From an uncultured Fibrobacteraceae bacterium (lineage in GTDB: Bacteria > Krumholzibacteriota > Krumholzibacteriia > LZORAL124-64-63), in NCBI GenBank assembly GCA_964484595.1, contig CAZAHC010000001.1, forward strand, positions 1 to 44,126: DNA of 44,126 nucleotides. Reading direction: 5' to 3'. Below, piece after piece: positions 11,481 through 41,013 of the stretch (positions are counted from its first letter, which is position 1; each line of letters begins with the position of its first letter). Both the position numbers and the translations under genes were made by a program. The notes under the pieces were generated by a model. It saw only the letters and a list, made by a program, of their open reading frames with translations, was not told the DNA's origin and ran no database searches.

Positions 11481-12050
11481 TCAATCCAGGTAGATCGACT
11501 TCACCGAACCCCAGGTCGAATGTTCAGGTATGCAGGCGGGACGGTTGATCCCGGCCACCAGCGAGTTGGCGCCGATGGTGCGGGGCGTCATGGGAATCAG
11601 GTTGGATGGATCGGAGCCGTCGGCGTAGGCCGGCGTTCCCGCGATGCTCGGTTGCGAGCCGGGGTAGATGAAAAAGCCCACCGGATCCCCGCCCATCACC
11701 AGGACCGAAACCTGAGCTAGCTTGACGGCGAGGTCGGCCGGCAGCGGGTAGGCCAGACCGACCATGAAGTCGGTCAGGCTCGGCCCGGCGTTAACCGCCT
11801 GGCCGGCCAGGGTGACCGACAGGATCGAGACGTTCTCCGCCTCGAGCAGGCATTCCCAGCCGCCGACGCTCACGGACGGTTCCAGCAAGAGCAAGAACGC
11901 ATCGAGGGTGGAAAACTGCTCGGCCAGGATGCAGTTCTCCTCGCCCACCGTGTCGAAGAAAACGCCGACCTCGTCGCCGGCGCCGGCTAGGGCCGGCCAC
12001 AGCAGAAGCGCCGCCGCCAGCAGCGGCGCCAGCGAAACGCGAAAACTCAT
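11481..12050 (-). CDS. secreted protein, C-terminal TWG-tail family member P1 (same core subfamily as P5)
   Basis: ATG 12050 follows GGGAGGGGGG. The signal peptide is MSFRVSLAPLLAAALLLWPALAGAG. The mature N-terminus is VFFDTVGEENC, compared with P5 LYFDTGGEVNC. The tail is STWGSVKSIYLD-stop. Confidence 0.75.
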   Translation of the reverse strand: MSFRVSLAPLLAAALLLWPALAGAGDEVGVFFDTVGEENCILAEQFSTLDAFLLLLEPSVSVGGWECLLEAENVSILSVTLAGQAVNAGPSLTDFMVGLAYPLPADLAVKLAQVSVLVMGGDPVGFFIYPGSQPSIAGTPAYADGSDPSNLIPMTPRTIGANSLVAGINRPACIPEHSTWGSVKSIYLD

Positions 12051-12162
12051 TGGTTCCCCCCTCCCATCCCAAGGGGCCCGGGAATTTGCGTGGCAGGAGC
12101 TTCTAGCTGAAGATACCGAGGAGAAGGACATCCGTCCAGAGTGAGGAGGGGGTTGGTCCGAG

Positions 12163-12942
12163 CTAGATGATGCCGAGCCAGTCTCGCAGCAGGAACTCCA
12201 CCCGGCCGACCAGCAGCGCGATGCGGCCCATGACCGTGAACCCGAAGCCGGCGCCGAAGGTCACCATCAGGATCCAGAGACCAACCTTGCTGCTGACACC
12301 CAGCGCCCCGTTCTGGCCGCGGCTAAAGTAGAAGTAGGAGAGACAGCACAACGTGCCGCCGGTCAGGAAGACCGCGTCGATGGTGCGGCCGAGGCTGAAG
12401 CCCTGCTCGGTGACGACACAGAGCGCGGTGATGCTGTTGCCAACCTGGTTCATGAAATTGGCTTCCAGGTCCCCGATGAGTCTCAACCCGGCGGTTGTGC
12501 CCATGATGAAGGCCAGGGTCAGGACGCTCGCCGGCCGGCCGCGGGGATGCAACCTCGCCAGCAGCAGCAGGCCCATGCAGAGAGGAATGCAGTAGAGGAG
12601 CCGGCGAGCGACCGAGACGTCTACCGGGGTGTCCAGGTGGAACAGGTAGACAGGTACCTCGGGGACGATGTTGGCAACCAGCAACGGGACGAGCGTGCTC
12701 CAGAAACCCAGGACCATCCAGTAGGCGGCGGTCACCCCGACGAAAACGTGCTCCGCGAAGCGGAAGAACGGGTTGTCACCGTAAAGGAAGCTGAGGGCGA
12801 ACAGGGTCAGAGCCGCCCCCACCCAGATGCCCAGGTTCTGGTAATCCAGGAAGGGGTTGGTCATGGACCCGCTGGAGGCCCTGATGAGAAGGAACATCAG
12901 GGCCGAAAGGCTGAAAATGGCGATGATCAATCGCCGCCTCAT
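12163..12942 (-). CDS. polytopic integral membrane protein, unknown function
   Basis: ORF 12163..12942 has about 7 hydrophobic segments. Its ATG overlaps the stop of the upstream reading frame (ATGA). Confidence 0.7.
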   Translation of the reverse strand: MRRRLIIAIFSLSALMFLLIRASSGSMTNPFLDYQNLGIWVGAALTLFALSFLYGDNPFFRFAEHVFVGVTAAYWMVLGFWSTLVPLLVANIVPEVPVYLFHLDTPVDVSVARRLLYCIPLCMGLLLLARLHPRGRPASVLTLAFIMGTTAGLRLIGDLEANFMNQVGNSITALCVVTEQGFSLGRTIDAVFLTGGTLCCLSYFYFSRGQNGALGVSSKVGLWILMVTFGAGFGFTVMGRIALLVGRVEFLLRDWLGII

Positions 12943-13106
12943 TCCTTCTTACCCCTTCGCCGGCGCACGACGTACTGCACGTTGCCAATGATGATCAGGA
13001 GGATGATCAGGAGGTGGGCCGCGGTCTGGGGCCCCATTCTTTCCAGAGCGGTCCGGCATTCGGGACGGTCCAGGTGGGGGTACGTCTCGACCAGCAGCTG
13101 CTCGTA
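12939..13106 (-). other. coding-like continuation after the in-frame TAG of the upstream gene, or alternatively a 32-aa membrane peptide from ATG 13037
   Basis: The same frame as 13107..13817 stays open for 55 codons: YEQLLVETYPHLDRPECRTALERMGPQTAAHLLIILLIIIGNVQYVVRRRRGKKE. The first 13 codons after the TAG all end in G or C. It ends in a TM helix plus a basic tail, and its TGA overlaps the next ATG. Confidence 0.5.
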
Positions 13107-13817
13107 CTAGGCCGCTCCCTTGAGCCCGGCCAGGAAACCGATGCACTGGTCGGGAACGAAGGGGAAGAGCTCCGGAGAGCCCACCGCCACCGATCCCCCC
13201 ACGATGGGAATGTGGCCCGGAATGGCCGCATACTTGATCCACTCCTCCATACCGGGGTAACCCGCGGAGCAGTCGATTATCAGGTCGAAGCTCCGGAGAT
13301 TGTCCACCCACTCCATGATGGGCAACCTCTCCGTGTCGTAGGTGCTGATGTTGTGGGTGTCAGTCGCGATGACCTTCTTGAAGTCGGTCAAGGCGACCGC
13401 GATGGCGCCCTCCCGGCCGCTGGCGAAGCCCAGGTTCACGTAATCCTGGCCGTACCGGTATTCGGGAAACTCCAGCTCCAGGATGTCCTCGACGGCCTTG
13501 TCGATCTCGACCGGCCCGGTCAACCAAAGGGTCAGACAGTAGAGCTTCGCCTCCTTCAAGCAGAGATGCCGGGCGAAGGCGTTGCTCATCGGCTTGATCT
13601 CGGGAGCCGAGGCGGGGTCGAAGTCAAAGACCAGCAGGACCCGGGCGTCCTCGGGCAACCCGGCGACCGTGTCGAACACCTCCCTGACCATCGGTGAGGC
13701 ATGCTCCTTGAAGGAGATCCGCCAGATCATGGGCACGGTCACGGCCAGCAGGATGCACAGGTAGATCACCCGGCGACCGGTGATGCGCTCGGCAACGTAG
13801 CTGGACAGGCGGACCAC
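13107..13817 (-). CDS. membrane-anchored protein of unknown function (N-terminal TM plus soluble domain), ending at TAG 13107..13109
   Basis: GTG 13817 lies 8 nt after GGGGGAGG and 1 nt after the upstream stop. The N-terminal TM is VIYLCILLAVTVPMIW. No domain was recognised. Confidence 0.7.
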   Translation of the reverse strand: MVRLSSYVAERITGRRVIYLCILLAVTVPMIWRISFKEHASPMVREVFDTVAGLPEDARVLLVFDFDPASAPEIKPMSNAFARHLCLKEAKLYCLTLWLTGPVEIDKAVEDILELEFPEYRYGQDYVNLGFASGREGAIAVALTDFKKVIATDTHNISTYDTERLPIMEWVDNLRSFDLIIDCSAGYPGMEEWIKYAAIPGHIPIVGGSVAVGSPELFPFVPDQCIGFLAGLKGAA

Positions 13818-13818
13818 T

Positions 13819-14493
13819 CTACCTACCTCCCCCCAGATACGGCCGGTCGATGCCGAGCAGGACCTTGAGGCTGGTGGCGATCGTGCCCAGGGCGACGCCG
13901 ATCATGATCGCCCGGCTGCCGGCGGTCATTGGCACATACATGATCCACTGCACGAGGTTGGGAAGCTCGAACGACTCCAGCGATCCAGGCAGCCAGGCCG
14001 TGGCTAGGTTGCCCAGGAAGGTGCGGCCGAGCAGCAGCAGGAAGGCGGTCACCAGCATCACCGTCGCCTGGACGCTACGCACCCGGAAGGCCCGGAAGGC
14101 CGCCGAGGCTACGTAGAAGGCCAGCAGGCTGAAGAACGTCGCGTCGCAGGGCGAAAAGACGTAGTCGTAGATCCAGGCGAACACGCTGCCGGGCGCGGTC
14201 TCCGAACCGCTCATCCCTTGGGGGTTGCCGATCTTGAACAGGCCCACGATCAGGGTCACCGAGAAGGCCACCAGGCAAATCACGGAGTAACCCCAGCCGG
14301 GGACCCGCCGCCGGATCCGGCGCCGGTGCGAACCAATCAGGCTGGCGCCACCGAGGATGAAGGCGAAGGCGGCCAGGATGCTGAAGAAGAGGGAGACCTC
14401 TTCCCGCAAGGGCTCCAGCGGGGGGATGAAGACGGCCAGGATGAGCACGCTCCCCACCGTGAAGGTGATGGCAAGTGGCAACGCCGTTCGCAT
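13819..14493 (-). CDS. integral membrane protein (about 6 TM), unknown function
   Basis: ORF 13819..14493 with an ATG start, hydrophobic throughout, and the same operon orientation as its neighbours. Confidence 0.7.
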   Translation of the reverse strand: MRTALPLAITFTVGSVLILAVFIPPLEPLREEVSLFFSILAAFAFILGGASLIGSHRRRIRRRVPGWGYSVICLVAFSVTLIVGLFKIGNPQGMSGSETAPGSVFAWIYDYVFSPCDATFFSLLAFYVASAAFRAFRVRSVQATVMLVTAFLLLLGRTFLGNLATAWLPGSLESFELPNLVQWIMYVPMTAGSRAIMIGVALGTIATSLKVLLGIDRPYLGGGR

Positions 14494-14533
14494 CTGGGTC
14501 CTTATCTCCTCGTTCTCGCGCGATTTCTCTTCA

Positions 14534-15748
14534 TCATTCCCTGGCCCCCGTGTCGAAGATCGAACGCAGGCTGTCGTGCAGCAGCTCCAGGAAGCTGGAT
14601 CCGCTCAGGGTGACGAGGGTGGCCAGCAGGCAGCCGACGATGATGGCTCCGGCCGCCATCAGCTTGCCGAAGTCCTGTCCGCGCAGGCAACCCAGCTTCC
14701 GGGGGTCGCCCGACAGATAGGCGGCGGCCGCGAACAGCTCCTCGCCGATCAGGACGTGGTCACAGGCGGTCAGCAGGAAGGGGATCTGCGCTCGTTCGGC
14801 CGTGCCGGCGATCTGCACGGCGCCGATGTCCTGACCGACCTCGGCCAGGGCCAGGCCCTCGGCGAAGAAGGAGCCGAAATAGAGGCAGACGGCCGGCTTC
14901 TCCCGGCACATCAGGCCGTTCACTCCCGCCACGAACCCGAACTGCTCATCCGAGACGTAGAAGTTGTCGAAGGGGTCGTAGGCCCCAGCTCGCCCGACGG
15001 CTCCGTAGGCGTGACGCAGGGTGTCGTCGGCCGCCGCCATCACCAGCGAGTGGAACTGCGGCACCCGCAGGTTCACCTCCCTGTCGGCCGCGACCTTGGT
15101 CACCTCTTCCAGGACCGTCAGGCCGGCGATGGTCTGGATCTCGTTGAGGTCTTCCGAGCCGGGCACGAAGAAGACGGGCCGGCCGGCCGCGGCCGCGTGC
15201 CCGATCGCCTTTTCGATTTCCTGGATCCCCGGCAGCTTCCGGATCCGCAGGCGCCTGCCCCTCTGGCCGGCCAGGATGAAGTAGAGGATGGTCCCGCCGA
15301 GCAGCAAGCTCAGCAGCAGGCGATTCCAGCGATCCCAGTTTATCCACTGGTGAGTCGACGACACCGGGCCCACCGGCGGGGAGGCACTCGCCAGTTCCCC
15401 GGCCACCGCCTCGACCTTGTAGTAGAAGGGAACTCCCTTGGTGGCAGCGACGTCGACGAGACGGGTGCTGCCGGCGGGAGTCCGGCCCACCACCTGGTAA
15501 CGCCCGATGCTGCGCGTAGAACGCAGGACGGTGTACCCGGTCACCCGACCGTGGGGCTGGAAGTCGTCGGGCGAGGGGATCCAGCTGACGACGATGGCGC
15601 CGCCGTTGTCGTTGGGGCGATCGACGGCCCCGACCCTTTCCGGGGGCGCCGGGGCGCCGGATTCGAGGGCCGCTTCCTCGGCGCGGCCGGCCGCCGGTAC
15701 GGAAAGAACGAGCCAGGATCCCGCCAGGCAGACCAGAAACCAGGCCAT
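14534..15748 (-). CDS. signal peptide + FN3-like domain + TM + uncharacterised C-terminal domain protein
   Basis: The internal ATG at 15748 gives MAWFLVCLAGSWLVLSVPAAGRAEE. The stretch IVVSWIPSPDDF...GYTVLRS...YYKVEAV is FN3-like. The TM is LLLSLLLGGTILYFILAG. The longer ORF reaching 15982 overlaps the upstream gene and looks spurious. Confidence 0.65.
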   Translation of the reverse strand: MAWFLVCLAGSWLVLSVPAAGRAEEAALESGAPAPPERVGAVDRPNDNGGAIVVSWIPSPDDFQPHGRVTGYTVLRSTRSIGRYQVVGRTPAGSTRLVDVAATKGVPFYYKVEAVAGELASASPPVGPVSSTHQWINWDRWNRLLLSLLLGGTILYFILAGQRGRRLRIRKLPGIQEIEKAIGHAAAAGRPVFFVPGSEDLNEIQTIAGLTVLEEVTKVAADREVNLRVPQFHSLVMAAADDTLRHAYGAVGRAGAYDPFDNFYVSDEQFGFVAGVNGLMCREKPAVCLYFGSFFAEGLALAEVGQDIGAVQIAGTAERAQIPFLLTACDHVLIGEELFAAAAYLSGDPRKLGCLRGQDFGKLMAAGAIIVGCLLATLVTLSGSSFLELLHDSLRSIFDTGARE

Positions 15749-15809
15749 CGCCGGTCCCGACGCGAACGGCCGGTTCCGGGGCACACCGGTACCGGGCGCA
15801 GGAAGTCGC

Positions 15810-16892
15810 CTAGGGCTGACCCTCCTGAGCTGCGCGCTCGAACCTGGCCAACTGGTCCTGGAAATACTGGTCATCCGGTTCCTTGGCAATAGCCCTCTTG
15901 ATCCAGGAAACGGCCTCCTCGTACTGGCCTCGGGCGAAGTAGACCTCCGCCAACGTGTCCATGATACCTGGATCTTCGTCACTTAACCGGACGGCCTTAT
16001 GTGCAATATCGGTGGCCTCTTCCAGGGCGAGGCCGGCCTGGGCGGCGTTCCAGGCGAACCCGTTCATGGCCCCGACATCGTCGGGGTTCCGGCGCATGAT
16101 TTCACGATGAGTGGCGACCATCCCCTCGGTATCTCCCTGGCGTTTCTGGACGTACGCGATCATCCCCAGCACCGCCTCCGGCTCCATCGCGGCGGAGTAG
16201 TTAGCCAGGAGGCGCTCGAAGGTGGCGATCGAGACGTCGTAGTTCTCCAGCTTCCACTCCAGGCTCGCCAGCTCCCACAGGGCTGCCGAGGCCACCTGCA
16301 GCTCGTCCTGCTCGTCCCCGGCCAGGGCCTTCTCGAGCAGGGGGCGGGCGGCCGCGGCGTCGAGACGCTGCGCCCGCTTGGTCCCCGCCGCCAGCAGGAG
16401 TTCCGGATCGTCCGGGGAGGCGGCCAGGCGCTTCTCCACGTCGGCCAGGGTGCCCTTGCCAGCCAGGTAATCGGCGATCGTGGCCCGGAACTCGTCGGCG
16501 GGGCGGAAGCCGATGAAACGGTCGATCTCGCTGCCGTCGGGATTGCACAGCACCAGGGTCGGCATGTTGAAGATGTGGAATACGTCCGTGAGCTCCTCGT
16601 ACTCCGGCTTGTCCACGTCGACCTTGAAGGTGATCAGCCGGGCCAGATCGGAGATCACCTCCGGTACCGTGTAGACCTCCTTGTCCAGCATCTTGCAGGG
16701 GCCGCACCAGGTGGCATAGAAGTCGATCAGGATCGGCTTGTCTTCCTGGCCGGCCAGCGCGGTGATCTCGGACCAGGTCTGGCCCTCGAGCCAGACGACC
16801 TCGGCGGGCAGGTCGGCGTCCTGGCAGGAAACGGTCCCGACCAGCAGGATCAGCGAGACGGAGAGGGTGACCCAGGTCAGATTCCGGAGCAT
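15810..16892 (-). CDS. thioredoxin-domain / TPR-repeat lipoprotein
   Basis: The signal ends in a possible lipobox, LLVGTVSC. The thioredoxin motif is FYATWCGPCK. The C-terminal half is TPR-like, for example AEVYFARGQYEEAVSWIKRAIAKEPDD. Confidence 0.85.
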   Translation of the reverse strand: MLRNLTWVTLSVSLILLVGTVSCQDADLPAEVVWLEGQTWSEITALAGQEDKPILIDFYATWCGPCKMLDKEVYTVPEVISDLARLITFKVDVDKPEYEELTDVFHIFNMPTLVLCNPDGSEIDRFIGFRPADEFRATIADYLAGKGTLADVEKRLAASPDDPELLLAAGTKRAQRLDAAAARPLLEKALAGDEQDELQVASAALWELASLEWKLENYDVSIATFERLLANYSAAMEPEAVLGMIAYVQKRQGDTEGMVATHREIMRRNPDDVGAMNGFAWNAAQAGLALEEATDIAHKAVRLSDEDPGIMDTLAEVYFARGQYEEAVSWIKRAIAKEPDDQYFQDQLARFERAAQEGQP

Positions 16893-17016
16893 GGTTTACC
16901 TTCTTTCGCGAGAAACCAGGGGTTGCAAGCCCGGCTAAATCATGAATGGCCTACTGCGGCTGGACAAATGGCCGCCCTCGCAACGGCCCTTCCTGAATAA
17001 ACCTGGCTACGGGATC

Positions 17017-18057: not shown

Positions 18058-18080
18058 CGTCCCTCCTCGTGACCGGGAAT

Positions 18081-18593: not shown

Positions 18594-18631
18594 CTTCACC
18601 TCCGGACGGCCGGCGCCTCCGGGGCCGGCTA

Positions 18632-30402: not shown

Positions 30403-30407
30403 CCGGC

Positions 30408-31193: not shown

Positions 31194-31200
31194 CTGGGTT

Positions 31201-31230: not shown

Positions 31231-34200
31231 CTAGCCACTTCCACCGATGAGGCGGTAATAGGCCCAGAAGTAAGGATGTTCCCAGCGCCCGCCGGCGGCG
31301 CGCACGTCCTGCTGGGCCATCCTCAACGCCACCGCCTTGGTTTCACCGGCGAGCCAGTGGCCGTAGAAGCGTTCGGCCAGGAAGCGGGAGGCCTCGTCGT
31401 CGACCCGCAGGGTCGAGGCGATCACCGAGCGAGCGCCCGCCTGCAGGAACGCGCCCGCAAAATCCATCAGGCCGGTGCTGGCCCCGGAAAGCCGCCGCGA
31501 CGCCTCGCAGCAGGACAGGTAGACCAGGTCCGCGTTCAGAACCAGCTTGCCGACGGCGGGGATCGTCAGCTGCGGGGCTCCTTCCCCCCCGGCGAACCGG
31601 ATGGTCGAACGGGTCGGCAAGCCCTGAAAAGCGACGGCGTGGGTGGCGATGTGAAGCACCGCGAAGCGCTCCAGGCCCGAGCCGGCCACCTGGTCCCAGC
31701 TCGCCTCCCGGCCGACCCTGAGGACCGCCTCGCCTCCGGACCAGAGGTCGGCCACACCCCTGGCCTCGGACTCGGCGTGATGCAGGGCGCGTGAACCCGC
31801 CGCCGGCAGGCCCCTATCAGCGCTGTCGATGCCCAGAGCCAGCAGCGACCCACGGCCCACCGGGATTCGGCCAGGCGGCACGGCCTCCTCCAGCCCGAAG
31901 GAGACCAGGCAGGGCGCCTCGACCACCGGGCCGTGGTCCAGGGCCACCTTCGCCCCGGCGGAGTCCGCGGGCCGGGGCAGGAAGAGTCCGCTCCAGGGCA
32001 TGCCGAACAGCAGATCGTCCGGGATGATCAGGAGCGTCGAGCCCTCGCGCCAGTGGGAAACCACCGGTCCCAGTAGAACCTGGCCCAGGCGATGGGCGGC
32101 CCCGGGTTCGACCGGGCGGGCGGGGTTCTCCATGTCCGCCAGCGTGGGCAGAAGCAACTCGTTGAGTTCCCGGCGCGCAGGCAGGGCGAGCAGGTCCACC
32201 CGTCCGGCGGCAACCACCCAGGCAAAGGACCGCGTCCTGCCGACGAAAAAGGCCAGCAACGGGGATCGGCGCTGGTCCAGCAGCACCTGGAGGACCGGCC
32301 CGGGATCGCCCCCCCTCCCGCGCCCGCTCCCTCCGTGGCGATTCTGCTCGGCCAGCAGGAAGGTGTGCCGGCCGAGATCCTCTGCCGGCAGAAGCTCCGC
32401 ATGGTCGAGATAAAGACCGATCAGAGCCTCCGTGGCGTCCCGAAGGAGGTTCCCGCAGAACGAGCGCAGCTCGCCGACCTGGGACCGTCCCTCCTCCTCC
32501 CGGCCCAGCTCCAGCGCCCGCAGGAACGACACCTCGGCCCGGCGCCACTCGCCGAGGGCCGCCTGCGCCAGACCGGTCTCGACCTCCAGCCGGGCCCGCA
32601 GGTCGGCGGGGGAACGGCTGACACAGAGACCGCGAGCACGCTCGAAGTAGGCGAGAGCCTCGGCGAACTCCCCGGCCCGGGAACAGGACATGCCGAGGAA
32701 GAGGAGCGAGGAGAGCCTGGTCCGGAAACGGCCACCGAAGGCGGAATCGGCGCCGTGGTCCAGGAAGAGTTCCCGCGCCTGGACGAATTTTTCTTCCAGG
32801 AGCAGGACGTGTCCGAAGTGAAAGCGACTCCTGGCCAGCTGGTCGGAATTTCCCGCCTCCCCGGCCAGGGAGAGACTGGCGGCGAAGGATTCCCGGGCCG
32901 AACCGATGTCCCCGCGCAGGAGGGCGAGTTCCCCGGCGCTACGCAGGTACTCCCACTCCTGGCCGGTCCCGCCGCCGGCCGCCACCGCCTCCCGGGCCCG
33001 GACGTGGGCTTCGGCGGCCAGGCGGAACTCACCCTGGCGAGCCAGGAAATCGGCGGTGGCGATCTCGAAATCGGCCACCAGGTTCTTGTCGGGTTCGCTG
33101 TCGTGGAGAACGCCCCGCAGCTGCCGGAGCCGGTCGATGGCGCGGTAGGCGACCTCCGCCTGTCCTCGCTCCAGCCCTTGCCGGATCAGCCTCAACAGAA
33201 GCTCGGCCTCGTCGACGGCGAGGCTGGCGACCGACAGCCCGGCCCGGGCCTCGCTCAGCAACGATTCGGCGGCCGCGTAATCACCGATCTGGCAGAAATA
33301 CTCCGCCTCGAACCGAGGCAACAGGGCGCGGTTTCGCGGGTGGGGGAAGAGGTCCACCCAACTGCGCGCGCGGCGCAGGTAGACCCGGCAGGAATCGAGT
33401 TGCCCCAGCAGGCGGAAATCGTCGGCGATGTTCACCAGGCTGCGCGGCGTGTTCATCGAGTCGGCCACCGCCAGGTTGTACCCGAATACCATCCGGTCGA
33501 TCTCAAGGGCTTGCTCGGGACGGCCGAGGTTACCGCACACCGAAGCGGCCAGGTCGGCGCTGTGGGCATAGAGCCAGGGATAGTTGCCGGCCGCGGCGGC
33601 GGCCAGGCACTCCTCCAGGATCGCCAGGGCCTCGCCGTATTCCCGCCTGGTGGCCAGTATGTTCGCGATCGTGACCCGGGAGCGGAGTGTGCAGTAGGCG
33701 GAGCCGGATCTTCCCGCCATGGCGCCGCTCAGGGCGGCGGCGTGCAAGGCATCGTCCAGCCGGTCGTCCCGGAGCAGGAACCGGGCGATATCGAGCCAGA
33801 GGTAATATTCGGCGAAACACCCACCCAGAGCCCTGGCCTGCCGAATCCCGCCCAGCAAACGCTCGACCGCAGCGAGGTTCCGGCCGGCGTGACTCTCGAC
33901 CAGGGCCAGCTTGCGCTCCAGCCAGATCTGTTGCAGCGAATCGAGACCCGCCCGGCCCCGTTCGGCCCGGCGATAAAACTCCCCCCGATCACCGTACCGG
34001 TAAAAACGTCGTCCCCTTACGAAGGCGCCAACCGGCCCGGTGGTGTCCGCCAGGGCCGGCAGGGCATACATCTCGTTGCGTTCTCCGGTCCGCCGCAGCA
34101 GACCATTGTACCTGGTCGCCAGACCGATCCAGAGGAAATTCTCGGGATCGGACCGCCAGAGGGCATACAGCTCGTCCCCCGCCTCTTGCCGGGAAGCAGG

Positions 34201-34482
34201 CCGCTTGATCCGCACTGCCAGGTCCCGGTACCGCTTCACATCCCGTACCGTCCGGTTCGTCGGCCGGGTTTCCGGCAGGGAGGAGTATCCCGCGGCGATG
34301 GCGGCTTGCAGGTCCGCCGACAGGGGAACCCCCTGCAGATCGAAGAAGGGGGACGGCCCCCCCTCCGGTTCGGCCTGCCGCTCGCCGCAGCCCGGTAGGG
34401 CCAGCAGCGCCACCGCCAGGAACAACCAGGACCAGGTCCGGGCCGCCGCGACGAAACTCGCCTGTCCTCCGCAAACCGTCAC
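31231..34482 (-). CDS. TPR-repeat / CHAT-domain (caspase-like peptidase) protein, probable lipoprotein
   Basis: The C-terminal CHAT region has VLHIATHAV and LVYLSCCEAS (His/Cys dyad) and ends HPYFWAYYRLIGGSG. The long N-terminal region is TPR-like. The likely start is GTG 34482, giving MTVCGGQASFVAAARTWSWLFLAVALLALPGC. The track start at 34572 overlaps the sigma gene. Confidence 0.85.
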   Translation of the reverse strand: MTVCGGQASFVAAARTWSWLFLAVALLALPGCGERQAEPEGGPSPFFDLQGVPLSADLQAAIAAGYSSLPETRPTNRTVRDVKRYRDLAVRIKRPASRQEAGDELYALWRSDPENFLWIGLATRYNGLLRRTGERNEMYALPALADTTGPVGAFVRGRRFYRYGDRGEFYRRAERGRAGLDSLQQIWLERKLALVESHAGRNLAAVERLLGGIRQARALGGCFAEYYLWLDIARFLLRDDRLDDALHAAALSGAMAGRSGSAYCTLRSRVTIANILATRREYGEALAILEECLAAAAAGNYPWLYAHSADLAASVCGNLGRPEQALEIDRMVFGYNLAVADSMNTPRSLVNIADDFRLLGQLDSCRVYLRRARSWVDLFPHPRNRALLPRFEAEYFCQIGDYAAAESLLSEARAGLSVASLAVDEAELLLRLIRQGLERGQAEVAYRAIDRLRQLRGVLHDSEPDKNLVADFEIATADFLARQGEFRLAAEAHVRAREAVAAGGGTGQEWEYLRSAGELALLRGDIGSARESFAASLSLAGEAGNSDQLARSRFHFGHVLLLEEKFVQARELFLDHGADSAFGGRFRTRLSSLLFLGMSCSRAGEFAEALAYFERARGLCVSRSPADLRARLEVETGLAQAALGEWRRAEVSFLRALELGREEEGRSQVGELRSFCGNLLRDATEALIGLYLDHAELLPAEDLGRHTFLLAEQNRHGGSGRGRGGDPGPVLQVLLDQRRSPLLAFFVGRTRSFAWVVAAGRVDLLALPARRELNELLLPTLADMENPARPVEPGAAHRLGQVLLGPVVSHWREGSTLLIIPDDLLFGMPWSGLFLPRPADSAGAKVALDHGPVVEAPCLVSFGLEEAVPPGRIPVGRGSLLALGIDSADRGLPAAGSRALHHAESEARGVADLWSGGEAVLRVGREASWDQVAGSGLERFAVLHIATHAVAFQGLPTRSTIRFAGGEGAPQLTIPAVGKLVLNADLVYLSCCEASRRLSGASTGLMDFAGAFLQAGARSVIASTLRVDDEASRFLAERFYGHWLAGETKAVALRMAQQDVRAAGGRWEHPYFWAYYRLIGGSG

Positions 34483-34560
34483 CCGTCCTCCCTGTTCGCC
34501 GGTGAACCAGGATCTCCAGGTTTCTGGACAAAAACCCACGGGATGGAATAACCTTGAATC

Positions 34561-35220
34561 ATGACCAATCAACCCAAACCGGCGCCCGGGAACGACCCCG
34601 ACCTTGCCCGTGCCGTTGCCGCTTACCTGGCCGGGGATGAATCGGCCGCGGACGGACTATACCACCTGCTGCACGGTCCGGTCCATGCCGAGGCCCAGCA
34701 GTTCCTGGCCCGGGACAACATCGATTTCGACGACATCGTCCAGGATTCCCTGCTGGCCGTGCTCGACTACGTGCGGAAGAACGGAGGTTTCTCGGGCGAT
34801 CTGATCAAGTTCGCGGTCACCGTCGTGCGGAACCGCTGCCGGAACCTCCTGAACTCCCGCCAGAGGTGGCGCCAGGTCCCGATCGAGACGTTGCGAGATC
34901 GGTTGACCTCCGCCCTTTTGCGTAACCCTCTGGAAGCGCTCGAGGACGCGGAAATCCGCGGCCTGGTGCAGGAGGCGCTCGACCAGCTCGGACCCGAGTG
35001 CCGAGCCCTGCTGCACGCCCTGTACCGCCAGGGCAAGGCGTGCAAGGAAATGATCGGTCCCCTGGGGTTGAAATCGGTGCACGGAGTGTACCGCCGCCGG
35101 TCGTCCTGTCTGCTGCAGCTGAATCGGATTGTCAAAAAACGCCTGGATATTTGTTCATCTCCCAAGGGGAAAAGGCCGCTGCGGTCCACCGGGACCGCCG
35201 GGCCCAAGGCCAGGAAGTGA
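34561..35220 (+). CDS. ECF-type sigma-70 family RNA polymerase sigma factor
   Basis: Region 2-like sequence is DDIVQDSLLAVLDYV and region 4-like is ECRALLHALYRQGKACKEMIGPLGLKSVHGVYRRRSSCLLQL. It is transcribed divergently from the CHAT gene. Confidence 0.85.
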   Translation: MTNQPKPAPGNDPDLARAVAAYLAGDESAADGLYHLLHGPVHAEAQQFLARDNIDFDDIVQDSLLAVLDYVRKNGGFSGDLIKFAVTVVRNRCRNLLNSRQRWRQVPIETLRDRLTSALLRNPLEALEDAEIRGLVQEALDQLGPECRALLHALYRQGKACKEMIGPLGLKSVHGVYRRRSSCLLQLNRIVKKRLDICSSPKGKRPLRSTGTAGPKARK

Positions 35221-35222
35221 TC

Positions 35223-35996
35223 ATGAGCCCCACCGACAACGACCCGGGTTTCTTCGAGTGCGTCGACCCCGCCGTCGGAGATCTGGTCTGGCGGTACAGC
35301 GAACCGGACCTGGATCCGGCCCTGCGTCGCAAGCTGACCGATCACGTGGCCATCTGTGACGCCTGCCGGTGGGACCTGGGCCTGGAACAGGCCGTCCTGT
35401 CCGGCCTGCAGGACCGGACCCTGCAGGTCGACCCTCCCCGGCAGGGTCTTTTCTCCCCCTTCCGGCACCGGCGCCGCGCCGCCGCCAGGTCCCTCCGGGC
35501 CGCCGGCGGACTGGCCCTGGCCGCCAGCCTGGCGCTGATGCTGCTCCTGTCTCCCTCCGCCCCCGACGGCGACCTCGTCGACCGTGGCGGAGATGACCTT
35601 CTCCGCATCCTCCGGCCCGTCGAGAGCGAGGTGGTTTTCCAGACCGGTCCCCGCATCGTCTGGACGCCGCTGCCGGACGCGGTCAGGTACAAGGTCACCC
35701 TGCGGCAGGCCGGCGGCTCGTTCGCCTGGATCGATTCCACCTCCGCCACCGAGATCCGGGTTCCCCGCAACGCCTCGCTGCCCCGTCGCGCCCGGATCCG
35801 CGCCTTCGTCGAGCCCTTCCCGCCCGACCTGGCGCCGCCCCGCGGCGTCAGCGTTTCCTTCCGCACGGGTTCTCCCGCCGCCTTCTTCCTCTACCGCCTG
35901 GGCGCCGCCCCGCCGCCGGTACGCTTGCTGGCCGTGGTGGGCCTGGGCCTGCTAGCCGCTGGCGTAATGTCCGCCTGGCTGCTGCGCCGGCCCTAG
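35223..35996 (+). CDS. putative anti-sigma factor (zinc-finger type), single-pass membrane protein
   Basis: ATG 35223 lies 2 nt after the sigma-gene stop. It has an HVAICDACRW (HX3CX2C) motif, a central TM (LALAASLALMLLL), a periplasmic domain and a second C-terminal hydrophobic segment. Confidence 0.65.
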   Translation: MSPTDNDPGFFECVDPAVGDLVWRYSEPDLDPALRRKLTDHVAICDACRWDLGLEQAVLSGLQDRTLQVDPPRQGLFSPFRHRRRAAARSLRAAGGLALAASLALMLLLSPSAPDGDLVDRGGDDLLRILRPVESEVVFQTGPRIVWTPLPDAVRYKVTLRQAGGSFAWIDSTSATEIRVPRNASLPRRARIRAFVEPFPPDLAPPRGVSVSFRTGSPAAFFLYRLGAAPPPVRLLAVVGLGLLAAGVMSAWLLRRP

Positions 35997-36215
35997 AAAA
36001 TCCGCACAAAACCTCCGCCCCATCTGTTCAGGGAATACGGCCAGGGCGAGGTCTTGCCTGGCTCCTGTGCAAACCGTTTCGACCAGTCGGACCGGAGCCT
36101 GGCCGAGGGAGAAGACGAGCCCCACGACGTACGCGGGAGCGTCGGCCCTCCGGCCGACGTCGATCACGGGCGCAATCCCGGCGCCTCTCCCGCCAGAAAG
36201 AACAGGAGTGTGACC

Positions 36216-36404
36216 ATGGGCGAGAAGAGTACCCCGAGGAAAATGATGCTAAACAAGGAGTCGGTTCGCGTTCTGACGGATCCTGACCTGAAACAGGCGA
36301 GCGGCGGCAGGCCCCCGGTGAGCAATTTCGTCTGCCTCTGGCTCACCCAGGCCTGTCCACCGGTCTTCACCGAGGTCGGTTGCTATACCGACCAATGCCG
36401 CTAG
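36216..36404 (+). CDS. 62-aa double-glycine-leader peptide with a 4-Cys core (bacteriocin/RiPP-precursor-like)
   Basis: AGGAG lies 7 nt before ATG 36216. The leader is MGEKSTPRKMMLNKESVRVLTDPDLKQASGG, which fits the LxxxELxxxxGG spacing at -12, -8/-7 and -2/-1. The core is RPPVSNFVCLWLTQACPPVFTEVGCYTDQCR. Confidence 0.55.
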   Translation: MGEKSTPRKMMLNKESVRVLTDPDLKQASGGRPPVSNFVCLWLTQACPPVFTEVGCYTDQCR

Positions 36405-36434
36405 CCACAACGGCCCGATCTTCGGTCCAAAAAA

Positions 36435-36463
36435 GCGAGGGGGGTGCTTCGCCCCCCCCTCGC
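36435..36463. terminator. GC-rich hairpin between convergent genes, with a U tract only for the minus-strand transcript (P5)
   Basis: GCGAGGGGGG (36435..36444) pairs with CCCCCCTCGC (36454..36463). An A6 run at 36429..36434 becomes U6 after the hairpin on the minus-strand RNA. Confidence 0.5.
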
Positions 36464-36561
36464 GGTTAGGCTCTATCTGATAATCCCCGGACCGAGTCGG
36501 GTGCGTCTGGCGACGGGAGAGGGTTTTCAGAGAGAGCCTAGTCCGGCCAGACGACCGCCGA

Positions 36562-37161
36562 CTACCGGAACAGCGCCTTGAGACTGCCCCAGGTGACCCC
36601 CCGGTTGGGAATGACACCGCCGCAATCGCAGTTGATGCAGCCAACCGGCAGCGTGTAATCGCCGCTGGAGGGGGTCAGAAACTCCCAGTCGGCCATGAGG
36701 TTCCATTCCCCGCAGTAATAACCCGGGTTCTTCAGAGGCGGGGGCTGCTGGCCCGCGTAGGGACCCAGGTAGAAGAAGACCGGCTCAAAAGACAGGGGCA
36801 GGATGGTTACCTCGAGAACCTGTACGGCAGGGGCACCGGTGAAATCGAGCCCGCCGACGGTCCAGTGGCCCTGGGGATAGTCCGGAATCCATATGCCACC
36901 ACCGGTGGGTACGTAGTCGACGATCACGCCGTCAATGGGCGCGTAGGACACGCCGAATCCCCAGCCGTTAACGCAGGCAAGCTTGGGATTGGTGATCGTT
37001 ACCCAGCCGGTGACCGGAACGCCCGGAGTCGCGTCCACGCAGTTGACCTCCCCCCCGGTGTCGAAGTAGAGGCCGAAGCTGTTCAGAGCCGGATCGATCT
37101 GGGCCAGGGTGAGCGCAGGGAGCAGCAGGGCGAGACTGAAGACGATGCCTGGGTACCTCAT
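36562..37161 (-). CDS. secreted protein, C-terminal TWG-tail family member P5 (same core subfamily as P1)
   Basis: The RBS is GGAGGAG. The signal peptide is MRYPGIVFSLALLLPALTLAQ. The mature N-terminus includes LYFDTGGEVNC. The tail is GVTWGSLKALFR-stop. A candidate extended -10 (TGATACAAT on the minus strand) lies at 37211..37219. Confidence 0.75.
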   Translation of the reverse strand: MRYPGIVFSLALLLPALTLAQIDPALNSFGLYFDTGGEVNCVDATPGVPVTGWVTITNPKLACVNGWGFGVSYAPIDGVIVDYVPTGGGIWIPDYPQGHWTVGGLDFTGAPAVQVLEVTILPLSFEPVFFYLGPYAGQQPPPLKNPGYYCGEWNLMADWEFLTPSSGDYTLPVGCINCDCGGVIPNRGVTWGSLKALFR

Positions 37162-37272
37162 GAGTGCTCCTCCGGGAAGGTGGCCAACGGTCCGCCGCGT
37201 TTCCGGGGTAATTGTATCACAACCGGGGCCGGGAATTCATTAGCCCGGACTATTGAATCGTGGCGGGGTGGC

Positions 37273-38754
37273 TCAATCAGGCGCGGATAACCGCACCCAT
37301 CTTGCTTCACGCATGCCGGGGACGACCTCGCGAATGGCGGCCTCGACCGCCTCATCGTAGGGTCGCCACACACCGGTGCGGCCGGTCAGCCAGCAGACGG
37401 CAACGTTGTCGGTGAAGACCGGCCCCGGCGGCCAGGATCCCACTTCCCGGGCCAGCGCCGCGATCGAGGGTTCCTGCCGCCGGATCTCCGCCAGCCGGAC
37501 CGCTTGCCCGCCCAGATGCGGTGGCGCCCAGAGGATCGCGAGGCCAGCCAGGGCAGCCAGGAGCAGCGCGCGCCAGCGCGAACGCAGGGCAAGCCGGCGG
37601 GTCTCCTGGGTGGCCAGGAGCACGGTCTCCCAGGCCAGAACCGGCAGCAACACCAGTACGTGGCGGACTTCCTGGGACAGGAGGGCGTACACGAGGATCA
37701 GCCCGCCCAGGGTGAGCCCGAGCAGGGCGGTCGGACCGGCCGCCCGCAGCTTGCCGTGGCGCCGCCTCCGGCGCCAGGAAGCGCCAGCGAGAACGAGCAC
37801 CCCTCCCCAGACCGGCCAGGGCAGCCAGTGGCCGAGGGTTTCCAGGAAGAAGCGGATACCGTGGCGGACCTTGAGCAGGGTGGGCAAGAGGTTTGCCTGC
37901 AGGTTGGCCAGCGGCGGTTCCGGGGTCAGTCCGCGCAGCCGGGGGTATTCCCACCAGTTCTCCGCCAGATCCAGCTGCAAGGCGTAGGACAGCGGATTGA
38001 AGAGGGGAGAACCGGCGACCCGGGAAACATGAATCCACCAGGGCGCCGTCAGCAGGAGCCACATCCCGCAGGACACCGCCAGGTATAGCCGCAGGCGAGG
38101 CCAGCCGAACCAGCGGCGGTGCGGCGTGGACAGGACCGCGGCCAGCCACCAGAGGGCCGGCACCCATACGAGATCGATCCGCAGGAGAGTCAGGATCCCG
38201 ACCAGGGCGCCGTCGACCAGGGCGGTTCGCAGCCCGGCGGCGAACGGGTTCCGGTCGCGCAGACGCAACCAGAGGGCCAGCAGGAGAAAGGCGCAGGCAA
38301 CCTCCACCCAGCCCCAGTTCACGGCCAGACCCAGCAGGGGATTGAACAGCAGCAGGAGCAACCAGGCCGGCCCGGCGAACGCGGCGCCCCGCCGGAAAAA
38401 TCCGCCGAGTCCCAGCCAGACCGTCAGGGCCAGCAGACCGATCTGGAGAACACGCACCGCCTGCCGGGCCAGTTTGGGATCGCTGTCCACGGCCAGCAGC
38501 GCGGAGGTGAGCAACAGGGCGAACCCGGGTGAACGATGCAACAGCGGCTGGGGCAACTGCCGACCCCACTCGTAGGTGGTGGTCAGCGGGTAGATCACGT
38601 CGCAGCTCAGCCCGTCGCCCTCCAGGAGATTCCGGGCCACGCTGAGATGGTCGTACACATCCGCGCCGGCGTCCCAAGGCTCGGCAGGGTAAAGCAGCAA
38701 CCAGACGACGAGGAAGCAGAGGCCCGCCGCCGCGCCAGCCCGACCAGTGGTCAA
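37273..38754 (-). CDS. GT-C-fold glycosyltransferase-like polytopic membrane protein (ArnT/PMT-like)
   Basis: The 493-aa protein has about 12 TM segments. The first loop, PWDAGADVYDHLSVARNLLEGDG, resembles the acidic loop plus YxxxA motif of the ArnT/PMT family. The TTG start follows GAGGAGGAGGG. Confidence 0.6.
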   Translation of the reverse strand: MTTGRAGAAAGLCFLVVWLLLYPAEPWDAGADVYDHLSVARNLLEGDGLSCDVIYPLTTTYEWGRQLPQPLLHRSPGFALLLTSALLAVDSDPKLARQAVRVLQIGLLALTVWLGLGGFFRRGAAFAGPAWLLLLLFNPLLGLAVNWGWVEVACAFLLLALWLRLRDRNPFAAGLRTALVDGALVGILTLLRIDLVWVPALWWLAAVLSTPHRRWFGWPRLRLYLAVSCGMWLLLTAPWWIHVSRVAGSPLFNPLSYALQLDLAENWWEYPRLRGLTPEPPLANLQANLLPTLLKVRHGIRFFLETLGHWLPWPVWGGVLVLAGASWRRRRRHGKLRAAGPTALLGLTLGGLILVYALLSQEVRHVLVLLPVLAWETVLLATQETRRLALRSRWRALLLAALAGLAILWAPPHLGGQAVRLAEIRRQEPSIAALAREVGSWPPGPVFTDNVAVCWLTGRTGVWRPYDEAVEAAIREVVPGMREARWVRLSAPD

Positions 38755-38782
38755 GATCCCTCCTCCTCTTTGCCTGCCCGGG

Positions 38783-39868
38783 TTACCCGCTCAGCCATCC
38801 CGGCAAAATCTCCACCAGGTGTCCGGCCGTGAAAACCTGCGGTGTTATCGCCTGTAGCAGCAGCACCAGCGCCAGCCGCCGGCGAAAAGGGGCGCCGCCC
38901 TCGCGCAACCCCGCTGCCACCGCCGGCAACAGGCACGGGAACGCCAGCGCCGCCAGCCGCGACGAGTCGTAAGCAAACAAGAACTGGCCGCCGACGCCGA
39001 CCAGCAGCAGCGCCAGGCCCAGCAAATCCGCCCGGTTGCCCTCCCGCCACAGCCACCGGGCGTGCCAGAGCGGCAGCAGCCACAGCCACTGGAATGCCGA
39101 CAGGAAACCCAAAGGTTGCCAGGGCCAGGCGAGCCTCAGGTTCACCAAGGGATCGGCCAGCAGGGGCTGCAGGTAGTAACCCAGCGAATGCTCCACCTCA
39201 CGGTGGGACAGGATCGCCTGATGCGCCAGCAGCCAGATCGCGACGGCCAGCGGGATCCCCAGCAGGATCACGCGGCGGCGACCCGGAGCCGGCCCCGCTT
39301 CCCGCCACAACAACCACCCGAGCCAGGGCAGCAGAAAAAGCGCCCGCTCGTGATTCAGCAGGGCCAGCAGGAAGCAGCCAATCGCCGCCCCGGGCCGCGC
39401 CCTCCCCACCCAGGCGCCGAAAATCAGCAGATAGGTCACCACGTCGGTCAATCCACCATGGTGCAGGGAGGTGCGGGTCAGGAGCGTCAGACCGGGGACG
39501 CCGGCCGTGAGCAGGGCGTCATAGGCGCCGCTGCCGCACCGCAAGGCCCAGCGGGCCGCAACCGCGGGCAGCAGCACGCAGCAGAAAGCGATCAGCACCA
39601 GCAGGCCCTCCCCGCGCAGGCCCAGCAGCCAGGCCAGCAGGGGAGTCAGGAACCGGGGGGCCATCGCGTTGGGCGAGGTACCGAAGGGATCGGCAGCCAG
39701 CTGCACGTTGAGAATTCCCATGAGACTCTCGGGCATCCGGGCGGGGGCGGCCACCAGCGTGGCGACCAGGGTCACCAGCAGACCCGCCACCAGCGAAAAC
39801 GGCCAGGGGCCGAGGCGGGAAAGGAGGCGATCCGGAAGGTCGGTCACCGTCTGCAGGGAGATGGTCAT
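38783..39868 (-). CDS. polytopic membrane protein (about 9-10 TM), unknown function
   Basis: ORF 38783..39868 starts at ATG 39868. It is very hydrophobic and Trp/Leu rich, with conserved-looking loops LHHGG and LNHERALF. It lies 28 nt upstream of the GT-C-like gene on the same strand. Confidence 0.6.
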   Translation of the reverse strand: MTISLQTVTDLPDRLLSRLGPWPFSLVAGLLVTLVATLVAAPARMPESLMGILNVQLAADPFGTSPNAMAPRFLTPLLAWLLGLRGEGLLVLIAFCCVLLPAVAARWALRCGSGAYDALLTAGVPGLTLLTRTSLHHGGLTDVVTYLLIFGAWVGRARPGAAIGCFLLALLNHERALFLLPWLGWLLWREAGPAPGRRRVILLGIPLAVAIWLLAHQAILSHREVEHSLGYYLQPLLADPLVNLRLAWPWQPLGFLSAFQWLWLLPLWHARWLWREGNRADLLGLALLLVGVGGQFLFAYDSSRLAALAFPCLLPAVAAGLREGGAPFRRRLALVLLLQAITPQVFTAGHLVEILPGWLSG

Positions 39869-40006
39869 GGTCGGACCATGCTAACCCGTGAGTTTCGTCG
39901 GGGCAAGCGCAGCCCGACCGGCCGGCGCTTTGAATCCCGGAGACAGCGTACAAGCGCCAGTGGGGTCACAATTTTGTAGATTTTTTCTGAAAAAACTGCG
40001 CCAGGG

Positions 40007-40036
40007 TTGAAAATGCACCTCAGGAAATGGTAAAAT
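40007..40036 (+). promoter_or_regulatory. strong sigma70-type promoter TTGAAA-N18-TAAAAT
   Basis: The -35 box is at 40007..40012 and the -10 box at 40031..40036, inside a local AT-rich island. The next + strand gene starts about 250 nt downstream at 40294. Confidence 0.5.
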
Positions 40037-40293
40037 GTCGGAAGCTAGGGGGTTTCCAGACAATCGGTCGGATCCTGGGCGCTTTCCGCGCCGGTTTTTG
40101 GCGTACCCTCTGGAATGTCGCTTTCACCGGAAACCGGTCGTCCGGGTGTTGCGCCTAGTTGGGAGGAGCTTCTCTGACCCGCAATCCACTCCCGTAGCTG
40201 CTACCCGCAGGTCAGGGGGAGATCCGGGGCAGGGTTGCGCAACGGCTTTTCGCAACCGATCCTGGCGACCAGACAACCTATTGGAGGAACATC

Positions 40294-41013
40294 ATGAGGA
40301 AACTGTGCATGCTCACAATCGCAACCCTGTGCTTGAGTCTGCTGGCGGGCAGCGCCCTCGCCGAGCGGACCGTCGTGCCCACGCCCATCGGCGAGCTGGA
40401 ACTGCAGACCGCCGGCGTCGAGCGCAGCCGCCAGGACTGCACTGTCGGCAACCTCAACACACCTTCCTACATCGTCGGCGGCTGGTTCACCGGCGGCGAG
40501 GGCTACAAGTACCTCTTCAACCCCTTCGAGCAGAACTGTTACTGCCCGCTGGGATTCCAGCTCGAAACGGTCTCGATGATGCTCAACTTCCCCGACACGG
40601 CCACCTTCCCCATCGTGTTCACGGCCTATGTCGACCTGGAAGAGGCCGTCTGGGACGGGAACTGCTGGATTCCGGGACCGGAGCTCTGCGTGAGCGATGT
40701 TTACCAGATCCAGATCGACGAGCCAGGAGCCTACACGATCACCTTGCCGATCGTCTGCGACTGCGCGTTCATGGACTTCTTCTACTTCCTCTCGTTCCAC
40801 TTCATCGACCAGTTCGAGGCGGAGCTGATCACCTGTGATGAGCCCCTGCCCTGCACGGGCTACAACGACTGGGGCAGCGGCTGGGCCGACCTGTTCTTCT
40901 ACGGATTCGACACCATCGGCCTTCCCGTCATCACCGGTGACGTCATCTGCTGCGACTTCCCGGTCGACACGGAGGGCAACACCTGGGGCGGCGTCAAGAC
41001 CCTGTACAAGTAA
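40294..41013 (+). CDS. secreted Cys-rich protein, C-terminal TWG-tail family member P6
   Basis: The RBS is GGAGGAA. The signal peptide is MRKLCMLTIATLCLSLLAGSALA. The tail is GNTWGGVKTLYK-stop. Confidence 0.8.
   Translation: MRKLCMLTIATLCLSLLAGSALAERTVVPTPIGELELQTAGVERSRQDCTVGNLNTPSYIVGGWFTGGEGYKYLFNPFEQNCYCPLGFQLETVSMMLNFPDTATFPIVFTAYVDLEEAVWDGNCWIPGPELCVSDVYQIQIDEPGAYTITLPIVCDCAFMDFFYFLSFHFIDQFEAELITCDEPLPCTGYNDWGSGWADLFFYGFDTIGLPVITGDVICCDFPVDTEGNTWGGVKTLYK

Follow-up and report, generated by a model that had tools for sequence, protein, structure and literature searches.

Six putative secreted proteins (P1–P6), encoded on a bacterial metagenomic contig (CAZAHC010000001.1 of assembly GCA_964484595.1, positions 1 to 44,126, the whole stretch analysed and hereafter the window), end in a shared C-terminal tail of ten residues, of the general form TWGx[VL]Kx[LI][YF][RK]. 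The tail is portable between unrelated core proteins, depends on the presence of a signal peptide, strictly occupies the C-terminus, is conserved far above the level of the cores, and lies outside the fold in structural models. It ranges over the Fibrobacterota–Chlorobiota–Bacteroidota (FCB) superphylum and allied candidate phyla and, in homologues of one core, is exchanged for the type IX secretion system's (T9SS) C-terminal domain (CTD). With moderate confidence, we infer that it is a self-contained C-terminal sorting or anchoring tag of Sec-exported proteins, which would be read by a conserved receptor in the envelope. That a protein reads the tail, that the tail directs localisation and that T9SS has any part in this are inferences.

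The tail in the window and across genomes

The window has a G+C content of 66% and is found in JGI and ENA assemblies. The six tail-bearing genes are as follows.

P1, 11481..12050, minus strand: secreted protein with signal peptide MSFRVSLAPLLAAALLLWPALAGA, an FFDTxGExNC core and the variant tail STWGSVKSIYLD; motif site 11490-11516, tail codons 11484-11516, stop 11481-11483.
P2, 21105..21818, minus strand: secreted protein, downstream member of a tandem pair; tail STWGGVKSLFR, codons 21108-21137; motif site 21111-21137.
P3, 21851..22547, minus strand: P2 paralogue; tail NTWGQVKNLYR (21854-21883); motif site 21857-21883.
P4, 24685..25740, minus strand: secreted protein, predicted two-domain beta-sandwich of a large 'choice-of-anchor' core family; linker at residues 333-342; tail ETWGALKSLYR (24688-24717), predicted helix; motif site 24691-24717.
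P5, 36562..37161, minus strand: secreted, P1-related protein; tail VTWGSLKALFR (36565-36594); motif site 36568-36594.
P6, 40294..41013, plus strand: secreted DUF7451-family protein, rich in Cys and jelly-roll-like; its core extends to the CC pair (residues 219-220) and is followed by linker DFPVDTEGN and tail TWGGVKTLYK (40981-41010); motif site 40981-41007.

A scan of the six-frame translation with the regular expression TWG.[VLIM]K.[LIVM][YFW] found exactly these six sites and no others in the window. The stop codon lies 0–2 residues away from all six copies; in P2–P6 one residue follows the motif before the stop, whereas P1 instead reads ...SIYLD-stop. The tails in the open reading frame (ORF) translations are the same as those spelled out in an earlier reading of the bare sequence (the first-pass annotation), which had also pointed to their high density. 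Indeed, the back-translated pattern ACNTGGGGNNNNNTNAARNNNNTNTWY matches six times in the window, against 0.00 expected from 100 dinucleotide-preserving shuffles. Synonymous positions vary among the six DNA copies, hence it is the peptide which is selected or conserved and not a DNA repeat, and the same codon differences rule out recent DNA duplication as their source. P1 is homologous to P5 (27% identity, E=7e-9) and P2 to its paralogue P3 (35% identity, E=1e-10), with P4 and P6 forming two further separate families, which are the relationships that had been proposed from inspection. None of the six proteins matched a model in Pfam-A (2025) or NCBIfam 20.0 (2026) even at E<=10, and a homologue search with P5 returned only P5 itself.

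Sec signal peptides had been assigned to all six proteins by the first-pass annotation. This holds for five genes, in which the signal peptide is intact and in frame, but not for P3, where it (MRNIAVFLGLCLLLTPATAPAQD, ATG at 22547) is read in a different frame from the tail-bearing ORF, the two frames overlapping at ~22468-22487. Judged from the sequence, a 1-nt frameshift seems to lie near 22468-22487, suggesting that P3 is either mis-assembled or a pseudogene.

Genomes, one per species, were scanned with the degenerate DNA pattern T-W-G-x-[VLI..]-K-x-[L..]-[YF]-R-stop, which gave at least 119 loci and, on translation, at least 124 tail-bearing ORFs in them; taxon counts are those of a sample. 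A shared upstream context in the great majority of these ORFs indicates that nearly all are clearly genuine tails. The pattern fixes T, W, G, K, Y/F, R and the stop, and the results free of this ascertainment are the homologue sets retrieved through their cores and the variant test, both described below. Almost all named records among the matches listed were metagenome-assembled genomes (MAGs). Carriers among these matches include Eisenbacteria, Ignavibacteria, Ignavibacteriaceae, Melioribacter, Kapaibacterium, Fibrobacteraceae and Latescibacterota, and further Krumholzibacteria, Zixiibacteriota, Gemmatimonadota, KSB1, Calditrichaceae and loosely labelled Bacteroidota. Five outlying labels (Alphaproteobacteria, Planctomycetota, Polyangiaceae, Elusimicrobia and Verrucomicrobiia), two of them on contigs of ~2.2 kb, are probably binning or labelling errors. 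NCBI taxonomy places Fibrobacterota, the Bacteroidota/Chlorobiota group, Latescibacterota, Zixiibacteriota and Gemmatimonadota within the FCB group and leaves Eisenbacteria and Krumholzibacteriota unplaced in it; the latter two usually fall near FCB in phylogenomic studies. As far as sequence matches can tell, the tail is not local to the window but spread widely through the FCB superphylum and the candidate phyla allied to it. Searching an index of 5.8 billion proteins with a 42-residue tail alignment gave two candidates and no matches, the word index being unable to retrieve a 10-residue motif, and a local test indicated that, in a database of 1.8 billion proteins, a tail profile would score genuine tails at E-values no better than 1e-3 to 40.

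Three further observations were made among the carriers. One MAG (F1F2.bin.167, locus L094, 1646-6972) has seven consecutive tail genes within 8 kb, at least three of them encoding lipoproteins with an LGC-GDDD start that resembles the Bacteroidetes surface-lipoprotein export signal. A conserved secreted tail protein of ~130 residues, with a single FN3/Ig-like domain and the ending ...HNVSGVKRTWGSIKAMFR, is present in L005, L008, L015, L024, L049, L050, L054, L055, L058, L060, L067, L068 and ~15 more loci from Ignavibacteria, Kapaibacteria, Melioribacter, Calditrichaceae and KSB1. It is assigned to no family in Pfam or NCBIfam, shares synteny with SpoIID/LytB-domain, Maf, MATE-type and UPF0104-like genes, and may be a tail-carrying housekeeping component of the envelope. 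Lastly, eleven IMG/VR contigs classed as viral (L123-L133) contain tail-ending ORFs, several having signal peptides, and could represent host DNA flanking prophages, contigs wrongly classed as viral, or tagged proteins borne by phages.

The stop codon in the scan pattern precludes a test of terminal position, hence we used variants outside that pattern, [SAH]WG.[VLIM]K.[LIVM][YF][RK], in the six-frame translation of 870 kb. A stop followed within 0–1 residue in all of them (12/12), and no internal copy of either the variant or the Thr form occurred in this 870 kb. By a crude, heuristic test (first ATG followed by a hydrophobic run), a signal peptide was detected in 96 of the 111 complete ORFs of the listed scan loci, which have a median length of 221 residues, and a few tail proteins are lipoproteins with an LGC-(G/S)DDD start. 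The expectation that tails would be confined to the C-termini of signal-peptide proteins is borne out by these counts.

The cores of 96 scan-derived tail proteins include CHRD, LTD, DUF7450/7451, beta-helix/NosD, NHL, MAM, CBM96, DNRLRE, choice-of-anchor Y and DVUA0089 domains. Several such families bear PEP-CTERM, LPXTG or T9SS anchors elsewhere, as reflected in the 'choice-of-anchor' naming used by NCBIfam. Neither in these 96 proteins nor in the window proteins does any Pfam or NCBIfam model extend over the tail, and a T9SS CTD is carried by none of the former (0/96).

Homologues found by way of their cores, 28 for P6 (DUF7451 family, 39–54% identity) and the best 150 of 3859 representatives for P4, served to derive a consensus free of ASCERTAINMENT bias; about half of the latter 150 have the tail. 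The 97 tails so obtained were collected with a regular expression that still fixed residue classes at positions 2, 5, 6 and 9, and give the consensus P-V-[AP]-[TV]-E-x-x-[TS]-W-[GSD]-x-[VIL]-K-[SA]-[LMR]-[YF]-R-stop. Position 1 is T or S in 93/97, the W is present in 86/97 (otherwise F or L) and the K in 93/97 (otherwise R). Position 3 is G/S/D, position 5 V/I/L, position 7 S/A, position 8 L/M/R and position 9 Y/F, and the last residue is R in 80/97 and K in 6/97 (R or K in 86/97). On this alignment the conserved unit includes the P-V-x-[TV]-E linker, and a Cys lies 8–10 residues ahead of the Thr in 45/95 scan-derived tails. The tail is far better conserved than the cores that precede it. The first-pass annotation had considered that homologues might lack it; core-retrieved homologues at 35–57% identity retain it.

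Structures were predicted with AlphaFold2 from family alignments for P4 and P6. In the P6 model the predicted local distance difference test score (pLDDT) is ~97 through the CC pair at 219-220, ~63 in the linker and <50 at residues 230-239, where the tail forms a four-residue helix (232-235); such values on a 10-residue tail say little of a bound state. In this model the position at which a Cys often lies ahead of the tail corresponds to the end of the last core strand. In the P4 model two beta-sandwich domains run to ~332; residues 333-342 follow as coil and 343-349 as helix, the block having a pLDDT of ~81. A fold search of the PDB with the P6 model gave weak jelly-roll or lectin-like matches alone (best E=2e-3). 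Both models place the tail outside the fold, as a short predicted helix on a flexible linker. The proposal of a helical and amphipathic tail stands in its first part, owing to the P4 helix, and is weak in its second, as the mean helical hydrophobic moment of the tails (0.50) matches that for a strand (0.49) and is reached by 22% of shuffles (0.36±0.16); an amphipathic helix is plausible on these predictions. The view of the tail as a portable module and not part of a fold is supported by the unrelated cores, by the placement of the tail past the last core strand on a low-confidence linker and by the alternation with a T9SS domain described next.

Exchange with the T9SS domain and how the tail may be read

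Among the best 150 of 3859 P4-core representatives, ~72 end in the tail (65 by regular expression, plus clear variants such as TWTTVKSLFR) and are mostly 340–370 residues long, and ~23 end in ...G.Y.YRL.....T.[KR]M.L[LV][KR], a T9SS-type CTD. The T9SS type A model TIGR04183 exceeded its cut-off of 23 in P0035, P0110, P0096, P0076 and P0081, the CTD-bearing homologues scoring 23.9–35.7 bits, and a further homologue (P0053) has an IPTL-CTERM domain in place of the tail. The CTD of the ~440-residue homologues begins where linker and tail begin in the ~350-residue ones. Tail genes also adjoin genes for FlgD_ig/TIGR04183 proteins in 23 of the 119 listed loci. In a Krumholzibacteriia MAG (L113, 941-7883) a tail gene, a 1467-residue PorU-like C25 peptidase with a FlgD_ig CTD and a SpoIID/LytB-domain protein follow one another on one strand. 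The peptidase is a distant PorU-like protein (133 bits against NF033707, below the equivalog cut-off of 420), and this was the only locus, among the matches listed, with a T9SS sortase-like gene directly after the tail gene. Exchange at the same junction, together with neighbouring CTD genes, suggests that the tail serves as one of the alternatives in a 'choice of anchor', the organisms concerned probably using T9SS as well.

In the mechanism that we favour, the tag would have two parts, a semi-conserved extended linker of ~8 residues (P-V-[AP]-[TV]-E-x-x), often placed just past the Cys that closes the core, and a near-invariant decapeptide, [TS]-W-[GSD]-x-[VIL]-K-[SA]-[LMR]-[YF]-R, at the free C-terminus, probably as a two-turn helix. 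After Sec export, one conserved envelope protein common to all carriers would bind the exposed peptide, and binding would set the final location of the protein, whether surface exposure, attachment or release. The tail would then be an evolutionarily interchangeable alternative to the T9SS type A CTD of ~80–100 residues. Foremost among the candidate readers is a component associated with T9SS, such as a shuttle of the PorV or PorP/SprF type or the translocon, in which case the tail might represent an extreme reduction of the CTD to its essential C-terminal Lys-containing motif; a separate, undiscovered receptor would be equally allowed.

A link to T9SS is suggested by the phyletic range of the tail, its co-location with CTD genes and its likeness to the essential C-terminal motif of CTDs. 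The last CTD strand, with its conserved Lys, is essential (PMC11285876, PMC11969387), loss of two terminal residues from RgpB blocks secretion, and the signal of HBP35 maps to its last 22 residues (PMC11285876). Furthermore, CTDs can shrink to three strands (PMC11285876, PMC11969387), and the three-strand form has been modelled to bind PorV in the same way as long CTDs (PMC11969387).

Several points weigh against the favoured mechanism, and against its T9SS version in particular. Known T9SS signals are folded and at least ~45 residues long, hence a predicted 10-residue helix is not a canonical CTD. These signals are folded beta domains whose architecture is reported to be essential (PMC11285876, PMC12618676), with ~100 residues in type A and 150–235 in type B, and motifs B, D and E are retained even in short CTDs (PMC12618676, PMC11969387). 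Proteins with the tail and proteins with a CTD are encoded side by side in single genomes, a pattern that suits separate fates or separate machineries as well as a shared one, and the tagged proteins could stay periplasmic. ORF clustering across the 119 listed loci gave no cross-phylum family, besides other secreted proteins, as a partner gene. We assign a T9SS-linked reader a minority share, roughly three parts in ten, of our confidence in a receptor-read tag. We also put forward tentatively, and with more doubt than the tag itself, that [TS]WGx[VI]Kx[LM][YF]R alone might suffice as an address label for a sorting route in approximately a dozen FCB-related phyla, being either the smallest T9SS signal or the mark of an undiscovered machine with its own receptor.

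The tail could alternatively be a direct physical anchor, a short cationic and aromatic helix lying in the plane of a membrane leaflet or on anionic lipopolysaccharide/lipid A, which would hold the exported protein on the envelope with no protein receptor, in the manner of the C-terminal helices of MinD, FtsA and PBP5. The predicted helices (P4 343-349, P6 232-235), the composition of W, I/V, L and Y/F with K and R, the net charge of +2, the flexible tether and the similar look of the SWIKRL-type helix of FtsA are all consistent with this. Lipid-binding helices normally keep only a pattern, however, and here the residue identities themselves are near-invariant (W 86/97, K 93/97, T/S at position 1, G/S/D at position 3). 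Arg is tolerated at position 8. The hydrophobic moment is undistinctive, ten residues would make a weak anchor, some carriers are already lipoproteins, and the exchange with a secretion domain is left unexplained. We regard direct anchoring as unlikely, and favour a protein reader over lipid binding because specific residues are near-invariant across phyla, a free end is strictly needed and the tail is interchangeable with a secretion domain.

Less likely again is a substrate tag, in which a periplasmic or surface enzyme cleaves the tail or uses its Lys for covalent attachment to peptidoglycan (compare Braun lipoprotein, ...KYRK) or a glycolipid, the enzymes proposed being a C25/PorU-like peptidase-sortase or an L,D-transpeptidase. 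The Lys at position -5, called invariant in this proposal, the Y/F-R ending and a basic residue often found 1–3 positions ahead of the tail (R in Eisenbacteria, K/R in the Ignavibacteria family) would suit such an enzyme. The last residue is just rarely Lys, unlike Lpp. The PorU-like C25 peptidase adjoins the tail gene in L113, but a C25 gene lies next to a tail gene in one or two loci, and the clusters in question cohere through a shared FlgD_ig CTD; a SpoIID/LytB gene adjoins the ~130-residue tail protein in 11 loci, but this synteny is largely of one lineage and may be inherited gene order. Finally, it is highly improbable that the tail serves quality control or turnover with no role in localisation, periplasmic proteases or chaperones recognising it as a C-terminal degron or docking peptide. 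Its strict free C-terminus and exposed, flexible presentation are typical of C-terminal degrons and PDZ ligands. Ligands of PDZ and tail-specific proteases, however, end in hydrophobic residues and the tail in Arg, and it is difficult to see why a degron would be shared by many surface-type proteins that are constitutively encoded and could be exchanged for a secretion domain.

The tail is undescribed in Pfam-A, NCBIfam and the searchable full-text literature, and we think it rather unlikely that a description exists outside the latter; searchable papers on Eisenbacteria T9SS, on sorting signals in Ignavibacteria and Fibrobacteres and on choice-of-anchor proteins hold no account of it. Which bacterial proteins reach the surface is predicted chiefly from C-terminal signals (LPXTG, PEP-CTERM and T9SS CTDs, among others), each of which has led to a machine of its own. 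The tail can be on many secreted proteins of one genome (six in 30 kb of the window, seven in 8 kb of L094), and its carriers belong to environmentally abundant phyla, largely uncultured, for whose secretomes the annotation is otherwise 'hypothetical protein'. With a curated, C-terminus-anchored model, many such proteins would be labelled at once, and phylogenetic profiling for the reader would have its input. If the tail is read by T9SS, it would challenge the need for a folded CTD and give engineers a minimal tag for secretion; otherwise it would point to an unknown sorting pathway.

Neighbouring genes in the window

The P3–P2 tandem of tail-bearing paralogues is kept as a tandem in L017, L022, L053 and L083, on contigs that include Eisenbacteria. 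In the conserved tandem the upstream member ends ...QVDGQTFL..P....[TS]WGx[IL]K[AR][RG]YR and the downstream member ...YLFRHDGKID.ECPT....TWGR[IM]KSLYR, a conservation that suggests a two-protein unit. Directly downstream of P4 is a gene for a STAS-domain protein of the anti-sigma-antagonist type (24160-24642, minus strand), and a STAS-domain gene also directly follows a tail gene in two unrelated loci (L012 7597-7998 and L025 6301-6651), one of them from Zixibacteria.

P1 is the last gene of an apparent operon (12163-16892, minus strand) that also encodes a secreted thioredoxin-TPR protein, a DUF6754 protein (315 bits) and three small polytopic membrane proteins, the last three with no family match. 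At 31231-35996, the gene for a 1113-residue TPR-CHAT protein is divergent from those for a sigma factor of the extracytoplasmic function type (Sigma70_r2) and a zf-HC2 anti-sigma-like membrane protein. Genes for large polytopic membrane proteins at 37273-39868, 27374-29041 and 22711-24114 (minus strand) are co-directional with tail genes. One of the three proteins is Wzy_C/O-antigen-ligase-like and two have no family, of which one has the N-terminal sequence DxYDHLSVARNLLEGDG, which we take to be reminiscent of GT-C glycosyltransferases. A GT4 glycosyltransferase gene is located at 29164-30402.

These polytopic neighbours (37273-39868, 27374-29041, 22711-24114 and also 18632-20944) were rejected as partners of the tail, as they contain only Wzy_C and MFS/spermidine-synthase fusion families and do not recur near tails elsewhere. 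Neighbour clusters that recur across the loci were likewise rejected, since the FlgD_ig CTD they share, synteny specific to a lineage (SpoIID, Maf, MATE) or common kinases account for them.

Comparison with known C-terminal signals

Like the tail, the beta-signal of outer-membrane proteins is conserved, occupies the very C-terminus over ~10 residues and has an aromatic residue close to its end. It ends in an aromatic residue within a beta-barrel, whereas the tail follows soluble beta-sandwich domains and ends in Arg or Lys; the tail is hence not a beta-signal, as the first-pass annotation had argued. Braun lipoprotein (...KYRK) resembles the tail in exposing a short C-terminal peptide that contains Lys, Tyr and Arg and needs its free end. 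Its acceptor is the terminal Lys, in contrast to the tail (Arg in 80/97, Lys in 6/97), and nothing in this analysis ties tail genes to an L,D-transpeptidase.

The membrane-targeting helices of MinD, FtsA and PBP5/6 resemble the tail in being terminal, ~10–18 residues long, rich in W or aliphatic residues with K/R, and predicted as helices. They act at the cytoplasmic face (periplasmic for PBP5), belong to single families and conserve only a pattern, whereas the tail is extracytoplasmic, occurs on many families and is conserved residue by residue.

Tripartite signals (LPXTG, PEP-CTERM, IPTL-CTERM, GlyGly-CTERM and MYXO-CTERM) are likewise short, portable, multi-copy C-terminal tags on signal-peptide proteins, and are found on the same cores (choice-of-anchor Y, DNRLRE, DVUA0089, LTD and CHRD). 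They differ from the tail in having a hydrophobic transmembrane segment followed by a basic cluster; no hydrophobic run is present in the last 30 residues of the tail proteins and no NCBIfam model matches the tail. The enzymes that process tripartite signals act on membrane-embedded tails, hence their mechanism cannot apply here, and the initial distinction from LPXTG, PEP-CTERM, GlyGly-CTERM and MYXO-CTERM signals is upheld by the missing segment and the lack of Pfam or NCBIfam matches.

The closest parallels are with the T9SS type A CTD (TIGR04183 / PF18962, FlgD_ig-like, including the short three-strand CTDs of Prevotella). Both tail and CTD are portable, sit at the extreme C-terminus of Sec-exported cargo behind a flexible linker, occur in the same lineages and loci, and occupy the same junction in P4-core homologues. 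The Sec signal peptide of such cargo is present in frame in 5/6 window genes and through the frameshift in P3, as it is in the 96/111 scan ORFs. Both also have an L-hydrophobic-basic ending and a conserved Lys among the last residues, which is essential in CTDs (PMC11285876, PMC11969387), although in a C-terminal alignment the Lys of the tail is one position off. At 10 residues (~18 with the linker) the tail is far from the ~45–100 of a CTD, it is predicted as helix or disordered and not as a beta-sandwich or sheet, and it is without motifs B and D. Only 10–20 residues follow the last core strand, which is too few for the CTD fold (size range from PMC11969387, PMC12618676), and the T9SS CTD hidden Markov model gave no match at E<=10 in the six window proteins. 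The tail lacks defining features of the T9SS CTD, of tripartite signals, of the beta-signal and of the Lpp end, and works most like a C-terminal sorting signal.

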